From positions 1-60,232 of the forward strand of contig JBCNUW010000012.1 in assembly GCA_039630575.1 (NCBI GenBank): 60,232 bases of DNA, in the 5' to 3' direction. Under the pieces are notes generated by a model. That model was not told where the DNA came from. It saw only the letters and a list, made by a program, of their open reading frames with translations, and made no database searches. Of the stretch, positions 43,498 through 58,672 are shown one piece after another. Each line of letters starts with the position of its first letter. Position 1 is the first letter of the stretch. Source of the DNA: Candidatus Hydrothermales bacterium (GTDB lineage: Bacteria > Hydrothermota > Hydrothermia > Hydrothermales > JAJRUZ01). The position numbers were made by a program, and so were the translations under genes.

Positions 43498-45681
43498 TTA
43501 ACCTTCCTTTTTATTTTCTGAATTTATATTATAAGTTAAAAGTATCACTTTATCTTTAAACATATATGTATTAAGAGGATAGACGTCAGGATCAAAAATT
43601 GTAAAGTAAAAATGCCATACGAGTATGGAAAGTGTTGCAAGTATTGCTTCATAGAAATGAATAATAAGAAAAACTTCAAATAACCAGGCAGGAAAGAGAT
43701 TTAGGAAAAAATTCTTAAACCAAAGAAATATACCTGTTGTTCCCATTATACCTGTCCCCCATATTAAAGCCCAGAATTCAAACTTTTCATAAAAAGTAAA
43801 AGGGTGACCCAGTTCAGGTTTTTCTTTTTTTATACCAAGGTTATAAAGAAAAAGATTTATAGCATCAGTTAGATCCTTAAAGTTAAATATAAGTCTTTTA
43901 AACTTTTCTCTTCCACTTGATGTAAAGATTACTAAAACAAACATCAAAAGAAAAATCATTAACATAAGTGTTCCTGCAATCCTATGAAGATAGGCTCTCA
44001 AAGCACCGTCACCTATTCTTACGAAGAAACTGAATAATATATTATCAGGATAATGATGAGCAAACCCTGTATACACAAGGATGAAAAAAGAAATTATATG
44101 AATCAAATGCATTCTCCTCTCTATTTTTGAAAATCTTGAATTTTTTACTTCTTTAGCTTCCAAATTTCTAAATTTATCAATCCTATATTCTCTTACTTTC
44201 TTCAAATAATCTAAAAAACAATAAATTATCATTCCTCCTATTGTTATTAATATGAGCAATGTGTAAAATATTCTAACAATTTTTTTAACCATAGCTACTT
44301 TCACGCTAACAACTTCATGAACTGGTCCGATTGCTACGCTTTCAGCTATCCCCTTATGGCATTTTCCACATGTTTGAGGCAGATTTTTCTTATTAACAGG
44401 AGATTCAGGGTCATCTGAAGGTAATATAGAATGATTACCATGACAAGATGCACAGTTTGCAGCCTTTATATTACCAGCCATCAGTTTAATTCCGTGATAA
44501 CTTGAAAGGAAATCCTTAAGTTCCATAACAGGGATTCCATATCGCTCGTAAAGTCTTACACTTTCGTGACAATCCGTGCATGTTTTAGGAACATTAATAG
44601 GATACACAGGTGATAGAGGATTCCAAGGGGGTAAAATCCTATGTTCTGAATGGCAGTCAATACAGGATGGTGCTTGAAAATTACCATACCTTATGGCTCT
44701 AAAATGATTACTTTTTACATAATCTTCGTACTCTAATTTGTGACATTTTGAACAAGTCAAAGGAACATTCTGTTTATAAATTGAAGATTTTATATCAGTA
44801 TGAGATCTTATGTTATGAATACCATGGCAATCAGAACAAGAGGCTCCTTTTTTTCCTTTTAAAATCATTTCATGATGGATTCCCTGTTCATACATTTCAT
44901 AGGGATTTTTTATTGGAATTCCCCATTTTTCGGCAAATTCAGGAATTGAATGGCATTTTCCACATGTCTTTGATAGATTTGAATAATATACACTTGAATT
45001 TTTATCAAAAGAATAAAAAATATCATGACTACCATGACAATCCCAACATTGTGCTGCAGGTACCTTCTCCTTCAATGCTAATCCATGAATACTTTCTTTA
45101 TACTCCTCAAACTCTCTTCTATGGCAATATCCACAATCCTCTGAACTAGTTTTCTTAACATGCTTTTTATCAGGTTTTAAACTAAATACTATTCTGTGGC
45201 AATCAATACACTCGTGTTTCTTGTGAACAGACTTTTTAACTATTTCACTTAATTTTACCCCATGACAACTGATACATTTTTGGGATGGATACAAAATTAC
45301 ATGGTATTTTTGTGGAACCATAATAGATGGGTGACAGGTTATACAAAACTTATCTAAATCAACAGGATGTAATTTCGAACCCTTCTCTAAGACAAATGGA
45401 ATATCATGTGTCCCATGACAATCTTTGCAGTCAGGAGCCTTCAAATTCCCCCTTCTTCTTGCTCTTTCATGAGGATCTATCTCATAGGCACCCATCTCCT
45501 CTCTGTGACACATAATACAGTCAACCTTTGTTAAGGGAACATCATGGGGTAATTCTCTTATAGTCCTATGACAGTCAACACATTTCATATCTTGGTGTGC
45601 TCTTCCCGGTAATTTAACATCTTCATGACATTCAAGACATTGAAAATTCTCGAGGGAAACAAGAAAATATAATATTAACAT
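43498..45681 (-). CDS. 16-heme cytochrome c fused to FdnI-type cytochrome b (extended CbcL-like)
   Basis: 16 CxxCH; C-terminal cytochrome b with ERRMH, LHRIAG, YEKFEFWALIWG, HFYEAILA, WHFY. Confidence 0.88.
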   Translation of the reverse strand: MLILYFLVSLENFQCLECHEDVKLPGRAHQDMKCVDCHRTIRELPHDVPLTKVDCIMCHREEMGAYEIDPHERARRRGNLKAPDCKDCHGTHDIPFVLEKGSKLHPVDLDKFCITCHPSIMVPQKYHVILYPSQKCISCHGVKLSEIVKKSVHKKHECIDCHRIVFSLKPDKKHVKKTSSEDCGYCHRREFEEYKESIHGLALKEKVPAAQCWDCHGSHDIFYSFDKNSSVYYSNLSKTCGKCHSIPEFAEKWGIPIKNPYEMYEQGIHHEMILKGKKGASCSDCHGIHNIRSHTDIKSSIYKQNVPLTCSKCHKLEYEDYVKSNHFRAIRYGNFQAPSCIDCHSEHRILPPWNPLSPVYPINVPKTCTDCHESVRLYERYGIPVMELKDFLSSYHGIKLMAGNIKAANCASCHGNHSILPSDDPESPVNKKNLPQTCGKCHKGIAESVAIGPVHEVVSVKVAMVKKIVRIFYTLLILITIGGMIIYCFLDYLKKVREYRIDKFRNLEAKEVKNSRFSKIERRMHLIHIISFFILVYTGFAHHYPDNILFSFFVRIGDGALRAYLHRIAGTLMLMIFLLMFVLVIFTSSGREKFKRLIFNFKDLTDAINLFLYNLGIKKEKPELGHPFTFYEKFEFWALIWGTGIMGTTGIFLWFKNFFLNLFPAWLFEVFLIIHFYEAILATLSILVWHFYFTIFDPDVYPLNTYMFKDKVILLTYNINSENKKEG

Positions 45682-45683
45682 TA

Positions 45684-47600
45684 TTAGCCTCTTAAATTAT
45701 TATACATCTTTATTTTATCTAAAAACTCTCTCATAAAAATTAAGTTATGAGAACCAAAAGAACCTTCAATTTTAAATTTTTCGTAGTCTTTTAAAAATTT
45801 GTAAAAAATTTCAATTTCTTTCTTACTTTTAATTTTTTTTAATATTTCATGAACATTAACTTCAAAATTACTTATCTCTCTTTTAATGCTATCAAGATCT
45901 TTTTTAAAGTTTTCTTCATAATCTCTCTCGTGACAGTTTGAACAAACTGAAGGAGAGGGCTTTACTATAAATCTGTTCTGTAGGTGGCAATCCACACACC
46001 CAATTTCAGCATTTTTCATATAATCAGGTGAGCTTGACAAATATTCTCCACTATAGAACTTTTTTTGAATTTCATGGCATTTTTCACAATCTTTTTCGTT
46101 CTTCATATGATGACAAGAATTACAATCTTCTGCAACCTCTTTTAGTTTTCCATGAGAAACTTCACTTGGTTTAACTTCAAAATGACATGTTATACAACTG
46201 TTTTTGAAAAGATGAGGTCCGTGGGTAAACTCTCTGTCTTTAAAATTAATAACACTGTTTTCTATCCCGAAATGGCAATTTATACACTCTGAATTTTCTG
46301 AATAAATTTTTTCTAAGGTCGGTTTTTTTGTCTCAATTTTCAACTCCCTTTCAACTTCGTCAAGTAAAAGATTTACATATTTTATATTATGGGCTCCAAA
46401 ACTTTTATCTTCTTCGATTAGCAAGAGATTTAAATCAACTTTCCTTTTATTATAATTTAAAATCCCAAATTCTCTTAAAACTGAGTAGATTTTTTCCTTT
46501 TTCTTTATTAATTCTATTCTTTTTTTAATTAAACTTTGCCATCTTAAAAGTAACTTGTCAAATTTCTTCCCATGACATGAAATACAGGAAGATGGTTTTG
46601 CCTTTGGAATTCCAAAATGAATTCCAAGATCAGTCTTTTTGAGTTCAGCTTTGTGACAACCTTGACATATTACACCGGCTAGAAACATTCTGTCAGGTAA
46701 ACTTGGCACATCAATACCTCCCACACCAGAATAAATTTTTTCTTGAATAAGATGAGTATTTCCATGACATTCTTGACATACTGGAGAAAAAACCTGAAAA
46801 GTACTAAACTTTCCATGCTTTATTTCTTCATGACATTTAAAGCAAGATATATTTTTAAAATTAACATGCATCTCATGAATTTTTTTATAATTTTTAAAAT
46901 CAAAAGTAGGCTTTAAATGGCAATCCTTACATCTTTCCGAATCAACATCCCCCCTACCTGTGGTTGTTTCTCTATGACAAGTTTGGCAGTTTATACCAAC
47001 TTTAATATAATCTGAGTGTTTAAAGGGTACACCCCAAATTAAAAGTTCTTCCGCTGGTGAGTGATGGCAAGTAGTGCACTCTCCCCTAGCCTCAAAATCT
47101 CCACCAATGAAATGACATAAAAAACAAACTTTTTGAGAAATAGCTGTATGACTACCCTGGACTAATTCAGAATGGCAGTTTTGACAGTTAAATTTAAATT
47201 TTATCTTGTTCTCATCCAAATGGAACAGATGAGTAAAATAAACATTTTTTCCCTTTAATTTTAATTTTCTATTTATGTAATCTTCTTTCTTATGGCATGA
47301 TAAACAAACCTCATCTTTAACTTTTGTTTGTATTTCTGTATTATAGACACCAGCAAAGTATCTGATAATTTCTCCAAAGAGCCTCACCTTTCCTCCCAAA
47401 TAATCTTTGAAAGTAGGACCATAGTGGCATTTATAACAAGGTACAGTGTTATGAGTAGAAGTAAGCCAATTTTCATAGAAACCTTTCATAAAATGGCAAT
47501 TTTTACAGAACTCTGGGTCATCTGTTACTCTAACAAAAAGTACAAAAAGGTAAATTGAAAAAATTAAAAATAAAGAAAATAATATTAAGATTTTTTTCAT
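45684..47600 (-). CDS. Membrane-anchored 18-heme cytochrome c with NapC/NrfH-like N-terminus
   Basis: TM helix, then [20 protein letters not shown]; 18 CxxCH; GAHN and GSHN after helical segments. Confidence 0.85.
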
Positions 47601-48457
47601 ATCTCCTCTTTTTCTTTGATAATTTTTTCGTATTCAAGAGGGTGTTCTTTAATCATTCTCTCTTTCGAAATTTTCCCAGTAAATATTGTTGGATTAAATG
47701 GAAAAACATCAGGATTAAAATGGGCATTATAAAAGTGCCAAATAAGGATAGCAAGTGTTGCAAGAAGAGCCTCATCTGAATGAGCTTCCTTTGCAATATC
47801 TATGACAAACTTTGGTAATATTCCAAGAAAAAAATTATGAAACCATAGAATTATACCAGTTGAAACCATTATAACCATCCCCCAATACACAGCCCAATAA
47901 TCAAATTTTTCTATATATGAAAATCTTCCAAACTTGGGGGGTTCTTTAGAGAGACCAAGAAAGAATTTTATATTTTGGAAAAAATCTTTAAAATCTTTTT
48001 TTCTTGGAAGAAGTTCAAAAAAATTCATTCTACCTTCTTTCGTAAAAACTAAATAAAGCATATGCCATACTGAAACAAAAATTAAAATAACAGCACCAAT
48101 CCTATGTAAAAGTCTTGATACCTGAATACCACCTATAAGCTTAAAAAATACCTTTGCCCATAAAGCATCATGAAACTTTATTGGTAAACCTGTGATGATT
48201 AGAATCAAAACACCAGTTGCAAGAAAAAAATGCTGAAGTCTAACATTTAGACTAAACCTTATAAAATATTCCCCCTCTCTGAGTTCCCTCTTCTCTCTTT
48301 CTTTCTTTTCCCTCTCTCTTTTTATTTTCTCAAACTCAGCCTTATACTTTTTTTTAATTTCGCTTTTTATTTTTTCTCTTAATTTACCTTCAAGTAAAAC
48401 TTCCTCTTCAATTTCAATTTCCTTTAAAACCTCTTCTTCAAAGTTTTTATTCTCCAT
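47597..48457 (-). CDS. FdnI/HydC-type di-heme cytochrome b subunit
   Basis: [36 protein letters not shown]; start 48457 after SD AGGAG; charged N-terminal coil. Confidence 0.88.
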
Positions 48458-49466
48458 ATCTTTTACTCCTGAATCTTCCATAAAGATCAAGGAGTATATG
48501 TAAAACAAGTGCAGTAATTACAAAAATAGTAAAAAATTTAAAAAAATTATAAACATAAAATACAACTCCAGATTCCCTCTCCCAAGGCAATAGATGAACT
48601 CTTCCTTTTGCAACATTATGTGAAGCATTGGGGTGACATTTGCCACATGTCTTCGGAAGGTTTTCTGGATGAATTGGAGAGAGCGGATCATCCTGAGGCA
48701 AAATCTTATGATATTCGTGACAGGAAACACAGTTAGCAGCCTTCAAAACACCGAATTCTAGAGCAATCCCATGAAAACTCTCTTTGTAAGCTTCTATATT
48801 TTTAACAGAAACACCTGCTTTTTTCATTAACTCTAAATTACCATGGCATTTCTCACAGGTTCTTAGAACATTTTTAGGGTACAAACTAGATCTAGGATCT
48901 TCAGCTGGTAATATATCATGTTCTCTATGACAATCAATACATACAGCTGAGGAAAGAAAACCTTTTTTAATTCCATTCCAATGAACTGAAGCTTCATAAT
49001 CACCCCGTTGAGTAGAGTGACACTTTCCACAAGTTGTAGGAATATTCTTTTTAAAAATACTCGATAAACTATCATTAGGTGGTCTAACATTATGAATACC
49101 ATGACAATCGAAACAATCTGGTGCTTTTTTACCCTCAGTTTTTGCTCTACTGTGGATACTTTCCTTATATTTTTCAGGTCTTTTTAAAACAGGGGCATCA
49201 ACCACATTACCTTCAAAGTGACATTGTAAACAATGTATTTCTCTCGGTTTTGTAAGATGTGGAATAACCGTTACATCATTGTGACAGTTTACACAAATAA
49301 ACTTACTATGAACAGAATTCTTAATATCATCATAATTCACATAAAGACTTATAAAATCACTGTTTTTTAAAATACCGAAATCTTTTTTTCCGTGACACAT
49401 AAGGCACTTTAAGTTTTCTTCCTCCTTAAATTGAATTAAAATAAACAAAAATAGTAAAGATTTCAT
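48447..49466 (-). CDS. Nonaheme cytochrome c with C-terminal TM helix
   Basis: 9 CxxCH; TM helix ending LHILLD. Confidence 0.88.
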
Positions 49467-50131
49467 TTTTCCTTCAGTCTTTTATATTCAAGATAATGAT
49501 TTTCCTTTAACCACTCTTCATCTACATAACCATTCCAAAAAGATAGATTAATCGGAAAGTTGGAAGGTGAAAGATGAACAATATAAAAATGCCATAAAAC
49601 TAAAAAAATTATAAATAAAGTAGCAGTCCAAGAATGAACTGCAAAAGAAAGGTCAAAAATCCATTTTGGAAAAACATAAAAAAAGAAATCATGAAACATA
49701 AGAATTACACCAGAAAAAATCATCAAGAGCAAAAAAAGGGAAACCGTCCAGTATTGCAATTTTTCTTTGTAGGAATACCTGTCAAATTCTGGCTTTTTAT
49801 CTATTTTACCTATGTTGTAAAGAACACTGTTAATGAGATCAAAAAAATCTCTTTTACAAGGTAAAAGTAATTTGAACTCTTTTCTACCCTCTTTTGTAAA
49901 AAATATATAAAAAACATGGTATATTGTAGTAAAAATTAAAATAAAAGCTGAAAATCTATGAAGACTACCCCTTGCTTCGAATCCACCCTCAAGAAAAATC
50001 AAAACTTTCCCAAAAAGGGTGTGAGAATACTTTAAAGAAAATCCTGAAAGAATTAGCAAAAAAACACTTATCATAAGTAACATGTGTTGAACTCTCCATG
50101 TTCTTGAAAATCTTAAGATTTTATTTTCCAT
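49463..50131 (-). CDS. FdnI/HydC-type cytochrome b subunit
   Basis: RVQH, LHRFSA, YKEKLQYW, VHSWTA, WHFY. Confidence 0.87.
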   Translation of the reverse strand: MENKILRFSRTWRVQHMLLMISVFLLILSGFSLKYSHTLFGKVLIFLEGGFEARGSLHRFSAFILIFTTIYHVFYIFFTKEGRKEFKLLLPCKRDFFDLINSVLYNIGKIDKKPEFDRYSYKEKLQYWTVSLFLLLMIFSGVILMFHDFFFYVFPKWIFDLSFAVHSWTATLFIIFLVLWHFYIVHLSPSNFPINLSFWNGYVDEEWLKENHYLEYKRLKEK

Positions 50132-50133
50132 AT

Positions 50134-51012
50134 CTACCTCCTTTTCTTGATATTTATATAAAGATCAAATATTATATGGGTAACAAAACCAATTAAAAGA
50201 ACTGAAATTAAAACAGTATAAAAGACTCTAACAGCAAAAACATAAGGTGCAACCTCCCTTCTTGCTTCAACGTGAATCTTTCCCTGAGCAAACTTAATAT
50301 CGGCTTTGGGATGACACTTTCCACAGGTCTTTGGAATATTTTCAGGATGTATAGAACTTTTCTTATCACTATTTGGTAATATAAGGTGAGTTTCATGACA
50401 GGAAACACAGTTTGCTGATTTCAAAAATCCCTGCTCCAAGTAAAGCCCATGATAGCTACTTAAATAAGTTTTATACCTCCGTGGTGGTAATCCATATTTT
50501 TCTGTTATTGCTTTATTTTCATGGCAATTAGCACAGGTTTTAGGAATATTCTTAAAATAGATAGGTGACTCTTTCTTCTCAGAGGAGAGAATAAAGTGTT
50601 CTGAATGACAATCTATACATGAAGGAGCATCTTTAGATCCCTTTTTAAGAGCAGTAAAATGAATACTCTCATTATACTCTTTACCCTCCTTTACATGGCA
50701 GTTTGAGCATTTCTCCGAAATTAATATTTTATAACCGGAAAATTTAAAAGATAAAACTTTATGGGTTCCGTGACAAGAATAACATTCAAGATGTCCATAG
50801 TGTTCACTTTTATAAAAAAATACTAAAACATCTTCATGACAGTTTAAACAGATTTTCTTTTTTTCAGGATGTGGATACTTATCAAAATCTATATGACAAT
50901 CAACACAACTTAGGGCTCTATGAGGAGAACTTTTTAAACTGTCGTATATCTCCTTTAGATGACATTCTAAACAGTTAAAATTGTTTATTAGTAAGCTTAA
51001 ACATAATATCAT
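50134..51012 (-). CDS. Nonaheme cytochrome c with C-terminal TM helix
   Basis: 9 CxxCH; TM helix ending THIIFD. Confidence 0.88.
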   Translation of the reverse strand: MILCLSLLINNFNCLECHLKEIYDSLKSSPHRALSCVDCHIDFDKYPHPEKKKICLNCHEDVLVFFYKSEHYGHLECYSCHGTHKVLSFKFSGYKILISEKCSNCHVKEGKEYNESIHFTALKKGSKDAPSCIDCHSEHFILSSEKKESPIYFKNIPKTCANCHENKAITEKYGLPPRRYKTYLSSYHGLYLEQGFLKSANCVSCHETHLILPNSDKKSSIHPENIPKTCGKCHPKADIKFAQGKIHVEARREVAPYVFAVRVFYTVLISVLLIGFVTHIIFDLYINIKKRR

Positions 51013-51098
51013 AGTTTTATCTCTTTTAATCTTTCTTTTATGTCTCTCGTTTCGTTATAACTCTTAATAATCTTATAAAAAAGTTGACTTAATCTCAT
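51009..51098 (-). CDS. Putative 29-aa leaderless uORF coupled to the multiheme operon
   Basis: MRLSQLFYKIIKSYNETRDIKERLKEIKL*; ATG 5 nt after TATAAT; TGA overlaps the next ATG (ATGA). Confidence 0.35.
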   Translation of the reverse strand: MRLSQLFYKIIKSYNETRDIKERLKEIKL

Positions 51099-51133
51099 AT
51101 AAAATTATAAGCCTTTTAAAGGTTATTTTTTTT

Positions 51134-51994
51134 CTAAACTTCAATTCCAAAAATTTTCCTTAAAAGAGTTCCTATTAAAAAACTCAAGAAAGATACAGAG
51201 GTTATAATTAAAAACATTTCAAAAAACTTCTTTTTATAATCTTCATCGTAAACAACTGAAACATAAAAAGTAAAAAGTGCGATTATTATAAAGGAAAATA
51301 ATAAAGAAAATAACAGAGACAAAAAAGGATTTTTAAATAAAAAATAGGGAATTAGAAGTGTAACAACTACAAACAAATACATAATACCAGTATAAAGGGC
51401 TGATAAGAGGGGTTTCCTATCACCTAGTTTTTCAGTCTTAACAGATAAATACTCTGATCCGGCCATTGATAGCGAAGCCGAAAAACCAGCTATAAATGCA
51501 GCTATGGATATAAAGAGAGAATTTCTTAAAGCAAAAGTTAAGCCAGCAAGGGCTCCGGTCAATTCAACAAGAGCATCAGATACTCCTAAAATCATAGAAC
51601 CAACATACTTTAGTCTCTCTTCCTCAATAAAGGAAATAAGTTTCATCTCATGTTCTTTTTCCTCCTTTCTTATATTTAAAAACTCCTCAAAGTTACTTTC
51701 AAGAAACTCGTAGGTTTTTTCAGAAAGTTCCTCACCTTTCTCCATCAGTTTTAAGCCAAAAACTATTCCAAATAGCCTTATTACCAATTTATAAAATAGG
51801 ATCTTTATAATATTTGGCTTAACTTCAACTTTTGTAATCTCCCTTAACTTTTCGTAATGCTTTAGTTCATCTTCTCCAATTTTTTTAATTTTTTCTCTCT
51901 CTTTCCCCTTAATTTTTTCTGATAAGTAAAGGTATACGTAATACTCGGTAATTTCCTTTTTTTGGGCATCAATAAGGATCTTTTTTAATTCCAA
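51134..51994 (-). CDS. Rubrerythrin/ferritin-like domain + VIT1/CCC1 iron transporter (MbfA-like)
   Basis: ExxH pairs (DELKHY, EEKEHE), G..DALVELTG.LAG, LSMAGSEYLS. Confidence 0.85.
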   Translation of the reverse strand: MELKKILIDAQKKEITEYYVYLYLSEKIKGKEREKIKKIGEDELKHYEKLREITKVEVKPNIIKILFYKLVIRLFGIVFGLKLMEKGEELSEKTYEFLESNFEEFLNIRKEEKEHEMKLISFIEEERLKYVGSMILGVSDALVELTGALAGLTFALRNSLFISIAAFIAGFSASLSMAGSEYLSVKTEKLGDRKPLLSALYTGIMYLFVVVTLLIPYFLFKNPFLSLLFSLLFSFIIIALFTFYVSVVYDEDYKKKFFEMFLIITSVSFLSFLIGTLLRKIFGIEV

Positions 51995-52013
51995 ACTCTT
52001 AAGTTTTTTTAAA

Positions 52014-52508
52014 TCACTTTTTAGCTACAGGGTGTTTTATCTTTTCAAAAAATTCTTTAGATTTAAATTCCTTATATGTGGGAGATTCTGGATTATGACA
52101 TCTTTTACAAAATTCTTCGTTAGGTTCTATCATTCCTACTTCCTCAGGCTTGGTTTTACCTTCATAGACATTTTTCATAACTTGCATTGATTTATACTCA
52201 GAACCTGGACCATGACAATCCTGACAACCTACCCCCTCTTCACCATCCCATCCATTATGACAGGTAACACATTTTTCGGAAGTTAAAGGATCATCTATTC
52301 CCATTTTCTTTGCAATCTCTTTTGACTTTTCAGTTTTTAAAGTTTCAAAAGCCTTTGCATGAGTAGAATTTTCCCATATTCCCCATTGATTTCCTCTTGC
52401 TTCTGCCTTATGACACATCTTACAAACAGTATTTTTAACATATTCAAATTTCTTTTTTTCCTGAGAATACAAAGTTAAATTTAAAATTCCTAAGATTAAA
52501 ATCACCAT
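52014..52508 (-). CDS. Tetraheme cytochrome c (c554/c552-4 family)
   Basis: CKMCH, W..S.HAKAF, CVTCH, EGVGCQDCHGPGS.Y, CKRCH; signal peptide. Confidence 0.85.
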   Translation of the reverse strand: MVILILGILNLTLYSQEKKKFEYVKNTVCKMCHKAEARGNQWGIWENSTHAKAFETLKTEKSKEIAKKMGIDDPLTSEKCVTCHNGWDGEEGVGCQDCHGPGSEYKSMQVMKNVYEGKTKPEEVGMIEPNEEFCKRCHNPESPTYKEFKSKEFFEKIKHPVAKK

Positions 52509-52603
52509 CTGTTTATCCTCTAATTTGAAAATTTAGGATTTGAACCTTATTATTAATGATAGAATATCTTTTTAAAAATTTTCAAACAAAGGGTTTTAAA
52601 AAT

Positions 52604-53890
52604 ATGACACAACTTGAATACGCAAGAAGTGGAAAAATAACTGACGAAATGAGATATGTTGCAGAAAGTGAAGGAAAAAAACCAGAAGAAATAAGGGAAC
52701 TTATAGCATCGGGCAGAGTGATTATTCCAAGGAATATTAATCACAAAAACCTTTTAAAATTTAGTGGAGTTGGGGAAGGTTTAAAAGTAAAGATAAATAC
52801 AAACATAGGGACATCATATGATTATGTAAATTTAGAGGAAGAAATAGAAAAAGCAAGAATTGCAATCGAATACGGTACTGACACCTTGATGGATCTTTCA
52901 ACTGGAGGAGATATTAAGCAAATAAGGAAAAAAATTTTAGAGATATGTACTGTACCATTTGGAACAGTTCCGATTTATGAAGTTGAATTTACTGTAGCAA
53001 GGGAAAAGGGTTCAATTTTTGAGATGAAAGGGGATGATATTTTTAAGGTAATTGAAGAACACGGGAAAGACGGTGTTGACTTTATAACTGTTCACAGTGG
53101 TATAAACATAGAAACTTTAAAGATCTATCAAAATTCAGGTAGATTAACAGGGATAGTATCAAGGGGTGGAGGGTTAATTGCTGCCTGGATGATTGAAAAT
53201 AAGGAGGAGAACCCTTTATACAAGTATTTTGATAGGCTTTTAGAGATAGCACGGGAATATGATATTACACTTTCACTCGGAGATGGTTTAAGGCCTGGGT
53301 CTATAAACGATTCAACTGATAGAGCTCAAATAGCTGAGTTACTTATAATAGGGGAGCTTGTAGAAAAAGCCAGAAGGGCAGGTGTTCAGGTAATGGTAGA
53401 AGGTCCAGGGCATGTTCCATTAAATGAAATAAAAACAAATATTCAAATACAAAAAAAATTAACAAAAAATGCTCCTTTTTATATTCTTGGGATGCTTCCT
53501 ACTGACCGAGCTGCTGGTTTTGATCATATTGCTGGTGCTATAGGTGGTGCAATTGCCGGATGGTACGGAGCTGATATGCTTTGCTATATAACACCTGCAG
53601 AACATCTTGGTTTACCCGATGTAAATCATGTTAAAGAAGGTGTAATTGCCTTTAAAATAGCAGCTCACATCGCTGATATTGCAAGAGGAAATATTAACGC
53701 ATTAAAAGAAAACAGAGAAATGAGTGAGGCAAGATATAGACTTAATTGGGAAAAACAATTTGAACTTGCCCTTTTTCCTAAAGAAGCAAGAGAAATATTT
53801 GAAAAAAGAAAAAGTAACACTCAAGCTTGTTCCATGTGCGGACCCTTCTGTCCCATGAATCTTGTTGAAAAAATTCTTAAAAGAGTTTAA
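52604..53890 (+). CDS. thiC: Phosphomethylpyrimidine synthase (ThiC/Bza radical SAM family)
   Basis: MTQLE, KINTNIGTS, MDLSTGG, SRGG, GDGLRPG, EGPGHVP, TPAEHL, C-terminal CSMCGPFC; likely start 52604. Confidence 0.85.
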   Translation: MTQLEYARSGKITDEMRYVAESEGKKPEEIRELIASGRVIIPRNINHKNLLKFSGVGEGLKVKINTNIGTSYDYVNLEEEIEKARIAIEYGTDTLMDLSTGGDIKQIRKKILEICTVPFGTVPIYEVEFTVAREKGSIFEMKGDDIFKVIEEHGKDGVDFITVHSGINIETLKIYQNSGRLTGIVSRGGGLIAAWMIENKEENPLYKYFDRLLEIAREYDITLSLGDGLRPGSINDSTDRAQIAELLIIGELVEKARRAGVQVMVEGPGHVPLNEIKTNIQIQKKLTKNAPFYILGMLPTDRAAGFDHIAGAIGGAIAGWYGADMLCYITPAEHLGLPDVNHVKEGVIAFKIAAHIADIARGNINALKENREMSEARYRLNWEKQFELALFPKEAREIFEKRKSNTQACSMCGPFCPMNLVEKILKRV

Positions 53891-53919
53891 ATATAAAATA
53901 GCTTCTTCAATATTTATAT

Positions 53920-54357
53920 AAAAAAAGCCGGGTTCTCTTTAATTTTCAATTTAGTTTTTCTAAAATTCAGGAACCTTTTCTTTAAACTCCTTTAATTTAG
54001 GAACAGCTCCCTCGGCTTGAATCTCTCCGTAAGGTGTTATAACCTGGGCTCTTCCTACTATCTTAAAAGCAGAAGTGTATTCTGTTAATTGACAGACTAT
54101 TATCTCTCCATTTGATAAAATTTCTGTATGAGAAACTCTTGTCTGCAAACCTCTTGTAAGCCCCATTATTCTAACTCCATCTTCGAGTGCTTTTATAACA
54201 AGATACGGGTTACCATGGACAGGGTTTCTGTCCTCATATATATTCTTTTTTATTGTTTGCTCTCTTTTTGTCCCTTCTTCGTAATTTAACATACTTTTCC
54301 TCCTTTTTAAAACTTTCTTTTTAAAATACGGAAAATTTTAAAATAGAGAACCCGGCT
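53920..54357 (-). repeat. Perfect 13-bp inverted repeat bracketing the mtrB-like gene, followed by a U-tract
   Basis: AGCCGGGTTCTCT at 53926-53938 and AGAGAACCCGGCT at 54345-54357; on the minus strand the distal arm runs into a T-tract (plus-strand A run 53920-53926). Confidence 0.9.
53960..54292 (-). CDS. mtrB: Divergent trp RNA-binding attenuation protein (TRAP) homolog
   Basis: VIKALEDGV..GLTRG..T..H.E.L..GE..Q.TE.TSA.K..G.A...T.YGE aligns ungapped to TRAP; SD AAGGAGG. Confidence 0.88.
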   Translation of the reverse strand: MLNYEEGTKREQTIKKNIYEDRNPVHGNPYLVIKALEDGVRIMGLTRGLQTRVSHTEILSNGEIIVCQLTEYTSAFKIVGRAQVITPYGEIQAEGAVPKLKEFKEKVPEF

Positions 54358-54360
54358 CAT

Positions 54361-55677
54361 TTATAATTTTAAATCATTTTTAACAAAATCTTCAAGAACC
54401 TTTAGACTCCTTTGAGCAACAAATTCCATCTTCTTTTTTCTATTTTTTATAGCATCAATACCTGGATATAAGGAAAGATTAATGTTCATAGGAGAGAACC
54501 TTTTTGGATCTGAGGAGGTTATATAATTAATAAGAGCTCCAACTGATGTTTCTTTTGGAAAAACAATAGTCCTTTTGTGTTTTAAATAAAAATAAGCATT
54601 TAAACCAGCCACAAGACCAGAAGCTACTGCCTCTGTATAACCCTCTGTCCCTGAAATCTGTCCTGCAAAATATATTCTTCTTTCTTTCTTTAAACTTAAA
54701 TCTGGATTTAAAAGTTTAGGACCTAAGATATATGAATTTCTATGAACTGCACCATACCTTAAAAATTCTGCCCTTTGAAGACCTTTTATCATCCTAAAAA
54801 TCCTCTCCTGCTCCTTTATTTTTAGCTGAGTTTGAAAACCCACTAAGGAGAAACTTTTACCTTCCAAATCTTCTCTTCTTAACTGAACACAGGCAAAAGG
54901 TGTTTTACCTGTTTTCGGATCCTTAATACCATCAGGTCTTAAAGGACCGTATCTCAAAGTATCGAAGCCTCTTCTTGCCATTTCCTCAATAGGTAAACAG
55001 CCTTCAAAAAAATTTACTTCTCTTTCAAAATCATGGGGCCTGTGAATCTCTCCGTTTACAAGTTCTTTCCAGAAAATAGTATACTCCTCATAGTCCATTA
55101 TGGAGTTTAAATAGCCCTCATCATCTAATCCGTGTCTATCTTTAAAAAATAGCTTACTCATATCTAAGGAATCTCCTGAAACAATAGGTGAAAGTGCATC
55201 GTAAAAGTAGAAAAACTCTGAACCAGTTAGTTTTTTAATTTCATCGGCTATTTCACCTTCTGTTAAAGGTCCTGTAGCAACTATAACTATACCATCATCC
55301 GGTATCCTCGTAACTTCCTCTCTTTTTACCTCTACGTTTGGATGATGCTCAATTATTTCTGTAAGATACTTTGAGAATTCTTCTCTGTCTACTGTTAGGG
55401 CTTTACCACCAGGTAAAGAAAACTTAAAGGCAGCTTCTATGACAATTGAGCCGAGTCTTCTCAGTTCTTCTTTCAAAAGTCCGTGTGGGTGAGTAATTTC
55501 TTTTGATTTAAATGAGTTTGAGCAAACAAGTTCAGCAAAATAAGGAGTCCTGTGTGCAGGTGTGCTTTTTTTGGGTCTTTTTTCAAAAAGAATTACTTTA
55601 CAGTTTCTTTTTGCTATTTGCCAAGCTGCCTCTACTCCTGCTAATCCAGCTCCTAATACATATATCTTCTCACTCAT
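54361..55677 (-). CDS. trmFO: Folate/FAD-dependent tRNA m5U54 methyltransferase
   Basis: GAGLAGVEAA, ELVCSNS, FYDALSPIV, FEGCLPIE, RYGAVHRN, AGQISGTEGY; likely start 55677. Confidence 0.95.
   Translation of the reverse strand: MSEKIYVLGAGLAGVEAAWQIAKRNCKVILFEKRPKKSTPAHRTPYFAELVCSNSFKSKEITHPHGLLKEELRRLGSIVIEAAFKFSLPGGKALTVDREEFSKYLTEIIEHHPNVEVKREEVTRIPDDGIVIVATGPLTEGEIADEIKKLTGSEFFYFYDALSPIVSGDSLDMSKLFFKDRHGLDDEGYLNSIMDYEEYTIFWKELVNGEIHRPHDFEREVNFFEGCLPIEEMARRGFDTLRYGPLRPDGIKDPKTGKTPFACVQLRREDLEGKSFSLVGFQTQLKIKEQERIFRMIKGLQRAEFLRYGAVHRNSYILGPKLLNPDLSLKKERRIYFAGQISGTEGYTEAVASGLVAGLNAYFYLKHKRTIVFPKETSVGALINYITSSDPKRFSPMNINLSLYPGIDAIKNRKKKMEFVAQRSLKVLEDFVKNDLKL
54366..54395 (-). promoter_or_regulatory. 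Promoter TTGAAG-N18-TAAAAT inside the trmFO 3' end
   Basis: Predicts a start site at about 54360-54358, next to the first arm of the inverted repeat. Confidence 0.5.
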
Positions 55678-56401
55678 CTGTAACAAAATTATCAATCAGT
55701 TTTTTTGGAACCTCCTCAAAAAGATCGCTAATCCTTTTTAAATTTTTAAAATTATTTGAAATTTTCATTCTACTTGTCAGACAAAAAGAAGGAATTTTGA
55801 AATAATTTCCTATTAAAACAAGGGAGAAAGTTCCAACCTTATTTATTATCTTATCTTCATAAACTGCATCTGCCCCAAATATTATGGCATCTAATTGATT
55901 TGTAACCTTCGTAACATAGAAATCGGGAATTAATTTTGTCTCAAAACCAACTTTTTTTAACTCCTTCTCTGTAATTCTACCCTCTTCACCAGGTCTTGAC
56001 TCAGTACAGTATACAGTGGGACTAAAATTACTATCGATTCTTTTTAATTCTTTTAAAACCTTAATAGTAGTTGAACTTCTTGAGTGTAAAAGGATACTCT
56101 TTACATCTTTTAAAAGGTCATAAACTTTTTCCGATATCTTTTTTGGTGTCTCTTCAACTCTTCTGGTTAAATCAATTAAAAAATCTTTCAAATTCTCTTC
56201 ATTTACCTTAACTGTTTCTTCTAACAATTTGTAGAAAACAGCCATTGAGGGGTGAGTTTCTATAATTTTTGAGATAGCTTTTAAAAATTCTTCCTTTTCA
56301 ATTTTTTTTCTTGAGGTTAAAACACCTTTAAGAAAAATCAAAAGAAGTTCTTCACTACCTGATTTAAAATCTTTAAGTATTTTATGAACGATAGATTCCA
56401 T
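55670..56401 (-). CDS. eIF-2B alpha/beta/delta / sugar-phosphate isomerase family protein (short form)
   Basis: HPSMA, ESRP..EG, GADAV, NKVGT, LFEEVP; Ser (HSRSST) at the usual catalytic Cys position. Confidence 0.8.
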   Translation of the reverse strand: MESIVHKILKDFKSGSEELLLIFLKGVLTSRKKIEKEEFLKAISKIIETHPSMAVFYKLLEETVKVNEENLKDFLIDLTRRVEETPKKISEKVYDLLKDVKSILLHSRSSTTIKVLKELKRIDSNFSPTVYCTESRPGEEGRITEKELKKVGFETKLIPDFYVTKVTNQLDAIIFGADAVYEDKIINKVGTFSLVLIGNYFKIPSFCLTSRMKISNNFKNLKRISDLFEEVPKKLIDNFVTDE

Positions 56402-56413
56402 TTAAAAGCTTTG

Positions 56414-56486
56414 AGCGGGGGACGGGGCTTGAACCCGCAACCATCGGCTTGGAAGGCCGATGCTCTACCCATTGAGCTACCCCCGC
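56414..56486 (-). tRNA. tRNA-Gly(TCC)
   Basis: Anticodon arm TCGGC-CTTCCAA-GCCGA; no CCA. Confidence 0.95.
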
Positions 56487-56492
56487 ATTAAA

Positions 56493-56576
56493 TGGGAGGG
56501 GAAGGATTCGAACCCTCGAAGGCGTAAAGCCAGCGGGTTTACAGCCCGCCCCCTTTGTCCACTTGGGTACCCTCCC
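56493..56576 (-). tRNA. tRNA-Tyr(GTA)
   Basis: Anticodon arm GCGGG-CTGTAAA-CCCGC; long variable arm; no CCA. Confidence 0.95.
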
Positions 56577-56579
56577 AAA

Positions 56580-56651
56580 AGCCGGGGGAGGGATTTGAAC
56601 CCACGCCCTGCTGATTACAAATCAGCTGCTCTACCTCTGAGCTACCCCGGC
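56580..56651 (-). tRNA. tRNA-Thr(TGT)
   Basis: Anticodon arm GCTGA-TTTGTAA-TCAGC; one U-U mismatch in the T stem; no CCA. Confidence 0.93.
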
Positions 56652-56664
56652 TTTTTACTAATTT

Positions 56665-56693
56665 ATTATAAAATCAATGGACTCAAAATTCAA
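56665..56693 (-). promoter_or_regulatory. Promoter TTGAAT-N17-TATAAT for the tRNA Thr-Tyr-Gly cluster
   Basis: Near-consensus hexamers ending 13 nt upstream of tRNA-Thr. Confidence 0.65.
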
Positions 56694-56698
56694 TAACC

Positions 56699-58672
56699 CT
56701 ATGAAACTCTTAAACCAGGTTCCACTAACTTTTCAGTTGTTAATAGCACTATACCTCCCTTATCCTTTTCAACCGCCAAAAGCATACCCTCTGACAAAAT
56801 TCCTTTTATCTTTCTTGGTTTCAAATTATTTAAAATTATTACATTTTTACCTTTTAACTCATCCTTACTATAACTTTCCTTTATTCCAGCTACTAATGTC
56901 TTAACCTCCTTTCCTATATCAACTTCTAGTCTATAAAGCTTATCTGAACCCTCAATGTCGTAAACATTAACAATCCTTCCAACAACTAAATCTAACTTAT
57001 TAAAATCCTCAATACTAACATAATCCTTTTTTTCCTTCAAAACTTCTTCCTTTAAATTTTCCCTTATCCTTGGGAAAATTATCTCTACATTCCTTAATAT
57101 TTTTCCTTCATCAAGAAAGGGATTATATACTTCATCCCATAAGGGATCATTTAAACCCAAGGAATTTCTCAGTTTTCTCATTGAATACGGTAAAAAGGGG
57201 AAAAGAAGACAGGATAAAAGTCTAATTGCACTTAATGAATTATAAATTATCTTTCCCCCTTTTGACTTATCATTTTTTAAAACATCCCATGGTTTTGTAA
57301 AATCTATATACCTATTCACCTCTTGAGCAATTTCAATAATCTCTTGGAGAGCCTGTCGAAATTTAAAATTATCGAAATTTTCTTCAACCTTTTTTGACTT
57401 CTCTTTTATTACACTCCACATTCTATTTTCAAATTCTCCCTCTATTTTTTTCTCAGGAACCCTTAAAGAAAAATACCTCTCAAAAAGTTTAAAAACTCTT
57501 GAAAAGAGGTTGCCTATATCGTTAGAAAGATAAGTATCACAATCTTTTTCAAAATCCTCAATAGAAAATTCTGAGTCCTTTGTCTCAGGTAAAACCCTTG
57601 CAATTCCAAATCTTATGTAATCAGGATGGTACTTATCTAAAAAATCATCAAGCCATAGAGCCATTCCTCTTGATGTAGACATCTTTCCTTCCTTTGTTAC
57701 AAGATACTGGTTTGCAGGGATTTCAGATGGAAGTATAAAATCACCGTGTGCCATAAGCATACAAGGCCAAATAACTGCATGAAAAACAATATTATCCTTG
57801 CCAAGAAAATGAACAAGCCTAACTTCCCTATTTTTCCACCAATCCTCCCAATCTTTTTGAACTTTAAAAGCCCACTCTTGAGTTATTGTTATATATCCAA
57901 TAGGTGCATCAAACCAAACATATAAAACTTTACTCTTTGCCTCCTCAAGTGGAACTGGCACTCCCCAGGATAAATCTCTTGTTATGGACCTTGCCCTTAA
58001 ACCCTCTCTCACCCAGGAAAGAGCAAAATTTCTCACAAAATCTTTCCAACTCTTTTTTTCTTTTAACCAATTTTCTAAATCCTCTTTGAGCTTGGGGAGT
58101 AAGAAATAATAATTAAAAGTATCTTTTAAATGAGGTGTATTACCACATATTTTACATTTTGGGTCTAAAAGTTCAAAAGCTTCAAGCCATCTACCACAAA
58201 ACTCACACTGATCTCCTCTTGCACCTTCTGATTTACAATATGGACAAGTTCCTTCTATATACCTATCAGGTAAAAACCTTTGACAATTAAAGCAGTAATA
58301 ATTTTTTTCCTCTCTTTTTTCTATAAAACCCTTCTCATATAATCTTAGAAAAAAATTTTGAGAAAAACTTTTATGATGATCTCTTGTAGTCCGACCAAAA
58401 TAATCAAACGAAATATTTAACCTCTCAAAGGAATTTTTTATCAATTCGTAGTAATGATCAACAAGCTCCTTAGGAGACTTACCCTCTTTTTCTGCACTAA
58501 TTGTAATAGGAACACCGTGTTCGTCAGTTCCACATATATGAATAACATTCTCATTTTTTACCTTTAAATAACGAACATAAATATCAGCTGGAAGGTAACA
58601 ACCTGCTATATGACCCAAATGTAAAGGACCATTAGCATAAGGTAAAGCAGAGGTAACAAGTGTTTTTCCCAT
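56699..58672 (-). CDS. metG: Methionine--tRNA ligase
   Basis: PYANGPLHLGH, zinc knuckles, YVWFDAPIGY, GKDN, KMSTS, C-terminal tRNA-binding OB domain. Confidence 0.97.
   Translation of the reverse strand: MGKTLVTSALPYANGPLHLGHIAGCYLPADIYVRYLKVKNENVIHICGTDEHGVPITISAEKEGKSPKELVDHYYELIKNSFERLNISFDYFGRTTRDHHKSFSQNFFLRLYEKGFIEKREEKNYYCFNCQRFLPDRYIEGTCPYCKSEGARGDQCEFCGRWLEAFELLDPKCKICGNTPHLKDTFNYYFLLPKLKEDLENWLKEKKSWKDFVRNFALSWVREGLRARSITRDLSWGVPVPLEEAKSKVLYVWFDAPIGYITITQEWAFKVQKDWEDWWKNREVRLVHFLGKDNIVFHAVIWPCMLMAHGDFILPSEIPANQYLVTKEGKMSTSRGMALWLDDFLDKYHPDYIRFGIARVLPETKDSEFSIEDFEKDCDTYLSNDIGNLFSRVFKLFERYFSLRVPEKKIEGEFENRMWSVIKEKSKKVEENFDNFKFRQALQEIIEIAQEVNRYIDFTKPWDVLKNDKSKGGKIIYNSLSAIRLLSCLLFPFLPYSMRKLRNSLGLNDPLWDEVYNPFLDEGKILRNVEIIFPRIRENLKEEVLKEKKDYVSIEDFNKLDLVVGRIVNVYDIEGSDKLYRLEVDIGKEVKTLVAGIKESYSKDELKGKNVIILNNLKPRKIKGILSEGMLLAVEKDKGGIVLLTTEKLVEPGLRVS

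Follow-up and report, generated by a model that had tools for sequence, protein, structure and literature searches.

A TRAP-fold protein with an altered RNA-contact belt encoded in a tRNA/trmFO gene module of one WOR-3 order

Background

TRAP, the product of mtrB, is a textbook model of ligand-gated RNA binding and of ring-protein engineering. In the sections of a 2006 paper that bear on its binding sites (PMC1474065), E36, K37, K56 and R58 are given as the principal RNA contacts, where alanine substitutions drop the affinity 26- to >400-fold, and D39A is said to leave the RNA affinity unreduced. K37 meets the A base via main-chain atoms and the first base via its aliphatic side chain. According to the same sections, tryptophan forms hydrogen bonds with the T49, T52, T30 and S53 side chains and is also bonded through main-chain atoms of T25, G27, D29 and Q47, with T30 and T49 being essential and S53 dispensable for TRAP. 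The RNA- and Trp-binding residues are described there as completely conserved among the sequences known at that time, and K37, K56 and R58 as the residues that are recognised by the Anti-TRAP protein (PMC1474065). H33 and H34 have been placed on the strands connecting adjacent Trp sites.

Here we analyse a TRAP-like gene found in a 60,232-nt contig of Candidatus Hydrothermales bacterium (JBCNUW010000012.1, assembly GCA_039630575.1), which is referred to below as the window. A preliminary description of this DNA, made from the letters alone, proposed that the gene encodes a TRAP homolog that has lost its RNA-binding surface and remodelled its ligand pocket. Searches of the literature outside subscription journals for TRAP/MtrB in WOR-3 and for the TrpBP family (PF02081) found no account of the WOR-3 clade described in this work.

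Results and discussion

The TRAP-like gene and the fold of its product

The TRAP-like gene occupies positions 53960..54292 of the minus strand, starts with ATG, and encodes 110 amino acids followed by a stop codon. A Shine-Dalgarno sequence GGAGG, recognised from the sequence at 54299..54303 (minus strand), is located 6 nt 5' of the ATG and is kept at every clade locus. The protein matches the Pfam TrpBP profile (PF02081, gathering score 21.3 bits) with 95 bits and an E-value of 2.5e-27, residues 29-94 covering positions 4-69 of the 69 in the profile; against the NCBIfam MtrB equivalog NF009724 it reaches 94.4 bits, which is under the cut-off of 117, and it is thus not assigned to this equivalog. 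In a phmmer comparison with PDB sequences, its residues 23-94 and residues 2-73 of B. subtilis TRAP (1wap_A) form an ungapped alignment. Based on this alignment, core residues are numbered below as in B. subtilis TRAP, the position in our protein being the B. subtilis position plus 21. The comparison bears out the ungapped match to B. subtilis TRAP given in the preliminary description.

The TRAP-fold core (residues 29-94, 54011..54208, minus strand; profile match 54011-54211) comprises the amino-acid-binding loops and the outer belt. In an AlphaFold2 model it is predicted as a seven-stranded core with pLDDT ~95, for which the best Foldseek match is the TRAP chain 1c9s_G (target-normalised TM 0.95, rmsd 0.7 A); every one of the 41 Foldseek matches with E <= 0.001 is a TRAP chain. 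The open reading frame at 53960-54292 is a true TrpBP/TRAP-fold protein. Given ~50% core identity and the near-identical predicted fold, it probably still forms a TRAP-type ring.

The core is flanked by two extensions, which had been estimated at ~20 and ~13 amino acids and measure 21 and 14 in the alignment to the 75-aa B. subtilis chain. The N-terminal one (residues 1-28, 54209..54292, minus strand, 21 residues beyond B. subtilis TRAP) is predicted to be disordered, with pLDDT <50 at residues 1-24, and contains five clade-invariant residues, M1, L2, E11, K15 and N28. The Lys/Glu-rich C-terminal one (residues 95-110, 53963..54010, minus strand, 14 residues beyond the B. subtilis chain) has pLDDT values of 63-81; across the clade its E102, K104 and E109 are invariant, and G95, P98 and K101 are nearly so.

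Distribution and phylogeny of the WOR-3 clade

A word-indexed search returned 18 relatives, which are labelled Hydrothermales or WOR-3 wherever they are named, and a HMMER pass through 1.84 billion representatives identified only 76 family members. Among 272 genomes of the phylum, nine carry the TRAP-like gene, and all of them belong to one WOR-3 order: four of the five genomes of family f1, four of the five of family f2, and the genome from which the window is derived. A one-genome-per-species scan with a 12-sequence alignment as the query detected at least 541 TRAP-encoding stretches; the best 80 loci comprise 76 from Bacillota, three from WOR-3 and one from Vulcanimicrobiota. The proposed occurrence of a TRAP homolog outside Bacillota is thus confirmed, the clade being restricted to a single order. 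The Vulcanimicrobiota locus (L098, from a metagenome-assembled genome) encodes a TRAP with the canonical belt residues K37, K56 and R58, together with F46 and Y51; another transfer or a binning artefact are possible explanations. One clade bin (G050, 8% contamination) has two TRAP-like loci, one of f2 type and one of f1 type (contigs C6 and C196; L011 and L016), and probably mixes two populations.

In the phylogenetic tree the WOR-3 clade (13 rows) is monophyletic with support of 100/100, and its stem branches have lengths of 2.01 and 1.62 substitutions per site in an 80-column alignment. Since the other relatives found are essentially from Bacillota, an old horizontal acquisition of the TRAP gene followed by divergence appears most likely from the sequences; the donor lineage cannot be named because the alignment has only 80 columns and the stem is long. 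Among the checks suggested in the preliminary description, the gene neighbourhoods gave a fixed tRNA/trmFO context and the phylogeny a monophyletic clade on a very long branch.

The clade genes are under purifying selection, with median dN/dS of 0.062 for 28 f1 pairs and 0.158 for 11 f2 pairs. These values and the belt states shared by 19 clade proteins argue against decay.

Re-specified residues of the RNA-contact belt

The outer belt of the TRAP-like protein (V53, S54, E57, I58, S60, K77 and V79 in its own numbering) retains E36 and K56 and carries the substitutions K37I, R58V, D39S, F32V and H33S, each of which had been listed correctly before and is reproduced in the alignment to the PDB chain. 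Of the principal RNA contacts, two out of four are therefore replaced (K37I and R58V), and the protein lacks the full set of RNA-binding residues expected of MtrB. The changes are a property of the whole clade: V32, S33, E36, I37, S39, K56 and V58 are present in 19/19 clade proteins, and three further metagenome loci of the clade have L33. Close homologs thus do not keep K37 and R58, all 19 having I37 and V58, and the idea of strain-specific decay conflicts with both these clade-wide belt states and the purifying selection. Outside the clade the canonical states are almost universal, as 79 non-clade loci have F32 in 79 cases, H33 in 78, E36 in 79, K37 in 79, D39 in 79, K56 in 79 and R58 in 75. 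Loss of both K/R37 and R/K58 occurs in only one of 75 non-clade family representatives, a truncated 69-aa entry.

Judged from the aligned sequences, with K37I, R58V, F32V, D39S and H33S fixed, the belt has ceased to match the surface that reads (G/U)AG. The proposal that the RNA-binding surface was lost is therefore correct as far as K37 and R58 are concerned, but seven clade-invariant belt positions do not look like a surface plainly abandoned. The two families are only ~60% identical, and the belt and the C-terminal tail are still invariant or nearly so. This belt is solvent-exposed in canonical TRAP, yet it is invariant across f1 and f2, which argues for a binding surface that was re-specified rather than abandoned.

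The same observations bear on the possibility that the protein is a small-molecule-binding ring without a macromolecular partner, such as a chaperone-like ring or one that buffers or stores amino acids, in which the belt changes only removed an RNA affinity made harmful by the absence of the trp regulon. Such a role would agree with the conservation of the hydrogen-bonding residues of the pocket while the canonical targets are absent. However, mere loss of function does not predict a surface belt and C-terminal tail that are (nearly) invariant between ~60% identical families, nor does it fit the tight coupling to trmFO, with an 8-nt gene overlap in f2, and we regard this explanation as quite improbable.

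Conservation of the ligand pocket

All of the Trp-contact residues inspected in the 1wap_A alignment (T25, G27, T30, Q47, T49, T52 and S53) are kept in the TRAP-like protein. Within the clade, T30, T49, T52, T25, G27 and Q47 do not vary and position 53 is either S or A, so that the earlier claim of retained amino-acid contacts holds for the whole clade with this one variation. At the level of sequence, the pocket thus has an intact amino-acid anchor. Because the Trp-anchoring residues are invariant, an L-amino acid is probably still bound between the subunits, and the putative ligand is probably tryptophan or another bulky hydrophobic amino acid.

Differences are found at the putative indole-pocket positions, namely I22M, H33S, A46C, H51Y and I55F, with H34 being kept. 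These substitutions had been read as a remodelled pocket. They are real, and S/L33 and F/Y55 are indeed specific for the clade in comparison with 79 non-clade TRAP loci; the other states, M22 (8/79), C/V46 (3/79) and Y51 (1/79), also occur in canonical TRAPs, so that the pocket sets the clade apart only in part.

Absence of the canonical tryptophan regulon

Searches for TrpA, TrpC and TrpE, which found their positive controls in 14/14 genomes, gave no match in the genome of the window, a 94.7% complete draft. In the order as a whole TrpA is present in only one of 11 genomes, and eight of the nine TRAP-bearing genomes are without it. Neither an Anti-TRAP homolog nor a Trp_Tyr_perm transporter (PF03222) was detected in the same draft genome, where the match to the tryptophan-related family PF01212 is a 347-aa frame. 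From this gene content the host, a hot-spring bacterium, seems unable to make tryptophan and would have to import it.

The search for RNA targets covered both strands of the 94.7% complete genome, on the assumption of one recurring triplet with spacers of 2-3 nt. The longest GAG/TAG chain has five units, as compared with the 9-11 repeats of canonical targets; when one skipped unit is allowed, GAG and TAG chains each reach six, versus five and six in a simulated genome. Other G/C-containing triplets at periods of 5-6 nt form no arrays beyond chance except AGA/TCT, with a chain of nine versus six expected by chance that is located in a low-complexity tract, and TRF found only AT-rich low-complexity arrays in the genome. 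The lack of a trp operon and of a GAG-repeat leader, noted before in the window, thus extends to the whole draft genome. G041 is the sole clade genome with trp genes, which form an operon that runs from trpE to trpA and is fused with genes of the aromatic pathway (L114, G041:C11:44000-63900). No GAG/TAG chain longer than three units is present within 20 kb around its trpE, and the 450-nt trpE leader contains neither a GAG/TAG array nor an Rfam family above threshold.

It is most improbable that the protein is an ordinary TRAP with affinity for Trp and (G/U)AG repeats, or the decaying relic of such a TRAP. The NCBI and JGI pipelines call the clade members MtrB and the Pfam score is high, as an ordinary TRAP would require. 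Against it stand the replacement of K37 and R58 in every clade member, the MtrB equivalog score of 94.4 versus the cut-off of 117, and a genome without arrays, TrpA/TrpC/TrpE or Anti-TRAP, while the relic is excluded by dN/dS of 0.06-0.16. The automatic MtrB naming of the clade proteins is probably functionally wrong.

A TRAP-type RNA-binding regulator that reads some other repeated RNA element, and whose regulon is unrelated to tryptophan synthesis, is a serious rival reading, though on balance doubtful. Such a regulator would account for the retention of E36 and K56, for an invariant belt as expected of a working binding surface, and for a conserved basic C-terminal tail that exits at the outer rim; it would also be eased by the way in which K37 is described to act in TRAP, contacting the A base by its main chain while its side chain acts hydrophobically (relevant sections of PMC1474065). 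On the other hand, no G/C-containing triplet arrays beyond chance occur at 5-6 nt periods apart from the low-complexity AGA/TCT tract, alanine at the principal contacts costs canonical TRAP 26- to >400-fold in affinity (same sections of PMC1474065), and a conserved leader was not seen, the module that contains the gene beginning 11 nt after a tRNA gene.

A conserved module on a tRNA operon

The TRAP-like gene is preceded on the minus strand by a cluster of tRNA-Thr(UGU), tRNA-Tyr(GUA) and tRNA-Gly(UCC) (56413..56652, identified by ARAGORN and Rfam), a gene of the IF-2B family (55670..56401) and trmFO (54361..55695). Above gathering scores, Rfam reports nothing in the region 52000-57500 beyond the three tRNAs. 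The IF-2B-like gene encodes 243 aa and is the first protein gene of the module; it starts 11 nt after the tRNA trio, which suggests a tRNA-mRNA co-transcript, and overlaps trmFO by 26 nt. Its product matches Pfam IF-2B with 101 bits, and all of its NCBIfam matches are under their cut-offs. TrmFO, the folate/FAD-dependent tRNA U54 methyltransferase encoded directly upstream of the TRAP-like gene, is assigned by two scores to the NCBIfam TrmFO equivalog, 583.6 and 557.3 bits, both above cut-off.

This arrangement is strictly conserved. The TRAP-like gene directly follows trmFO in 10/10 genome-derived clade loci, and in the f2-type loci its start and the trmFO stop overlap by 8 nt. The IF-2B-like gene precedes trmFO in 8/8 clade loci whose contigs reach that far, and the tRNA-Thr/Tyr/Gly trio is located upstream of the IF-2B-like gene in 8/8 loci (the window and seven others); in G045 and G043 the module is cut by contig ends. 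Genes for TrmFO above cut-off are present in 126/272 genomes of the phylum, and in the sister lineages trmFO has neither an IF-2B-like nor a TRAP-like neighbour in 7/7 informative loci, a count that leaves out L140, where the examined region is without trmFO. Close orthologs of the IF-2B-like protein (E <= 1e-50) are found in the same order only, in 9/11 genomes. One genome of the same genus as the window (G048, 96% complete) is without the IF-2B-like, trmFO and TRAP-like genes together. The adjacency in all loci, the restriction to the order and the joint absence from G048 indicate that the three genes constitute one order-specific module on a tRNA operon.

Elsewhere in the window, on the minus strand at 43498-52508, multihaem cytochrome c genes alternate with cytochrome b561-type membrane genes, and a VIT-family gene and a c554-like cytochrome come after this run. 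The region has the appearance of a gene cluster for extracellular or periplasmic electron transfer.

A long-range RNA helix around the TRAP-like cistron

An inverted repeat brackets the TRAP-like gene. Its 5' arm (54345..54362, minus strand) starts ~4 nt past the trmFO stop codon, and its 3' arm (53921..53938, minus strand) lies ~25 nt past the TRAP-like stop with a T-run after it in the window. An equivalent GC-rich helix of 12-17 bp brackets the TRAP-like ORF in 9/9 f1-type loci (the window, L015, L016, L017, L019 and L100-L103), in which the arms are ~420 nt apart and the 3' arm is located 20-45 nt past the stop; f2-type loci have no such helix. The helix is part of the MFE fold of each f1 locus with 12-21 pairs, and the arm duplexes have predicted energies of -27.6 to -34.7 kcal/mol, while none of 3000 random window pairs reaches -20. 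RNAalifold on the f1 loci gives 14 pairs, three of which are changed on both sides (for instance, UA in five and CG in four sequences), with two rows of the alignment being partly misaligned at the helix and counted as broken. The U-G pairs of L015 and L101 can be formed only on the TRAP-sense strand, and the sense duplex is stabler than the antisense one in 8/9 f1 loci; together these two observations speak for a helix in the RNA transcribed in the TRAP sense.

The 12-mer core of the helix occurs only at its two arm sites in its own genome, where exact inverted repeats that are GC-rich, >=13 nt long and spaced by 100-3000 nt number only three, the helix included. The other two 13-nt repeats (C3:23017/23534 and C34:25642/27100 of the same genome) may be end-pairing helices of structured RNAs. 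A reading of the inverted repeat as the ends of a mobile cassette was considered and rejected, because the 12-mer is unique, the arms covary, the U-G pairs are sense-only and the sense duplex is stabler in 8/9 loci.

The helix could serve in processing, in end-pairing stabilisation of the transcript, or in long-range termination. A weak sigma-70-like promoter match (54366..54395, minus strand) lies inside trmFO near its 3' end and stops ~7 nt short of the 5' arm; it agrees with the consensus, the only basis of the match, at 9/12 positions, with five such sites observed versus 2.2 expected.

A tentative model of the TRAP-like protein

The reading that we favour, and to which we give roughly even chances, is a neofunctionalised TRAP-fold amino-acid-binding ring whose outer belt has been re-specified for a new partner tied to the module. 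In this scenario, the ancestor of one WOR-3 order would have acquired a TRAP gene from elsewhere, which then became fixed as the last gene of the module composed of the tRNA-Thr/Tyr/Gly, IF-2B-like, trmFO and TRAP-like genes. The Lys/Glu-rich C-terminal tail would have been added at the outer rim, the site of the canonical C-termini, and the occupancy of the ligand site would gate the binding of a new macromolecular partner on the belt and the tail. This partner would most likely come from the module itself, as TrmFO, the IF-2B-like protein, a tRNA or the module transcript; a module partner is the most economical choice because of the synteny, although trmFO could also have been a neutral landing site whose adjacency was then inherited. 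Gating of the module partner would replace the attenuation of a trp leader.

A more specific version of this model, which we consider distinctly unlikely, is an amino-acid-gated regulator of tRNA maturation, in which the ring, once loaded with tryptophan or another imported amino acid, would use its altered belt and lysine-rich tails to bind TrmFO, the IF-2B-like protein or a tRNA, and the helix would set the dosage of the protein independently of trmFO. If true, it would couple the supply of an imported amino acid to the m5U54 methylation of tRNA in a thermophile, and would give the TRAP fold its first function other than attenuation and outside Bacillota.

Conclusions

The TRAP-like proteins of WOR-3 form a natural, non-Bacillota clade under strong selection, in which the ligand site is kept and the output surface of the protein has been rewritten, and thus provide a ready-made experiment on the re-targeting of an allosteric ring. 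Their genomic context draws attention to a three-gene module around TrmFO that has yet to be characterised.

Compared with the TRAPs of B. subtilis and Geobacillus stearothermophilus (1wap, 1qaw, 1c9s), the WOR-3 protein shares the Pfam family, the fold, ~50% core identity and the Trp-bonding residues. It differs by: i) the substitutions K37I, R58V, F32V, D39S and H33S and the 21-aa N-terminal and 14-aa C-terminal extensions, and ii) a genome without a trp operon, (G/U)AG arrays or Anti-TRAP, in which the gene belongs to a tRNA/trmFO module of WOR-3. The clostridial TRAPs L058, L063 and L068 likewise have an altered RNA-belt residue, R58 being replaced by K or N, but they keep F32, E36, K37, D39 and K56 and belong to Bacillota hosts, whereas in the WOR-3 clade five belt positions are changed at once, tails have been added and the genomic context is another. 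The TRAP-Anti-TRAP complex provides a precedent for the outer belt as a protein-binding surface; in contrast to that system, no Anti-TRAP homolog is found here and the recognised residues K37 and R58 are changed, so that any partner would be a different protein. Finally, end-pairing helices are known to bracket structured RNAs, as in the processing stalks of rRNA. The f1-type loci resemble these stalks in having a GC-rich helix that joins the flanks of a ~420-nt unit and shows covariation, but the unit that is bracketed here is a protein-coding cistron.
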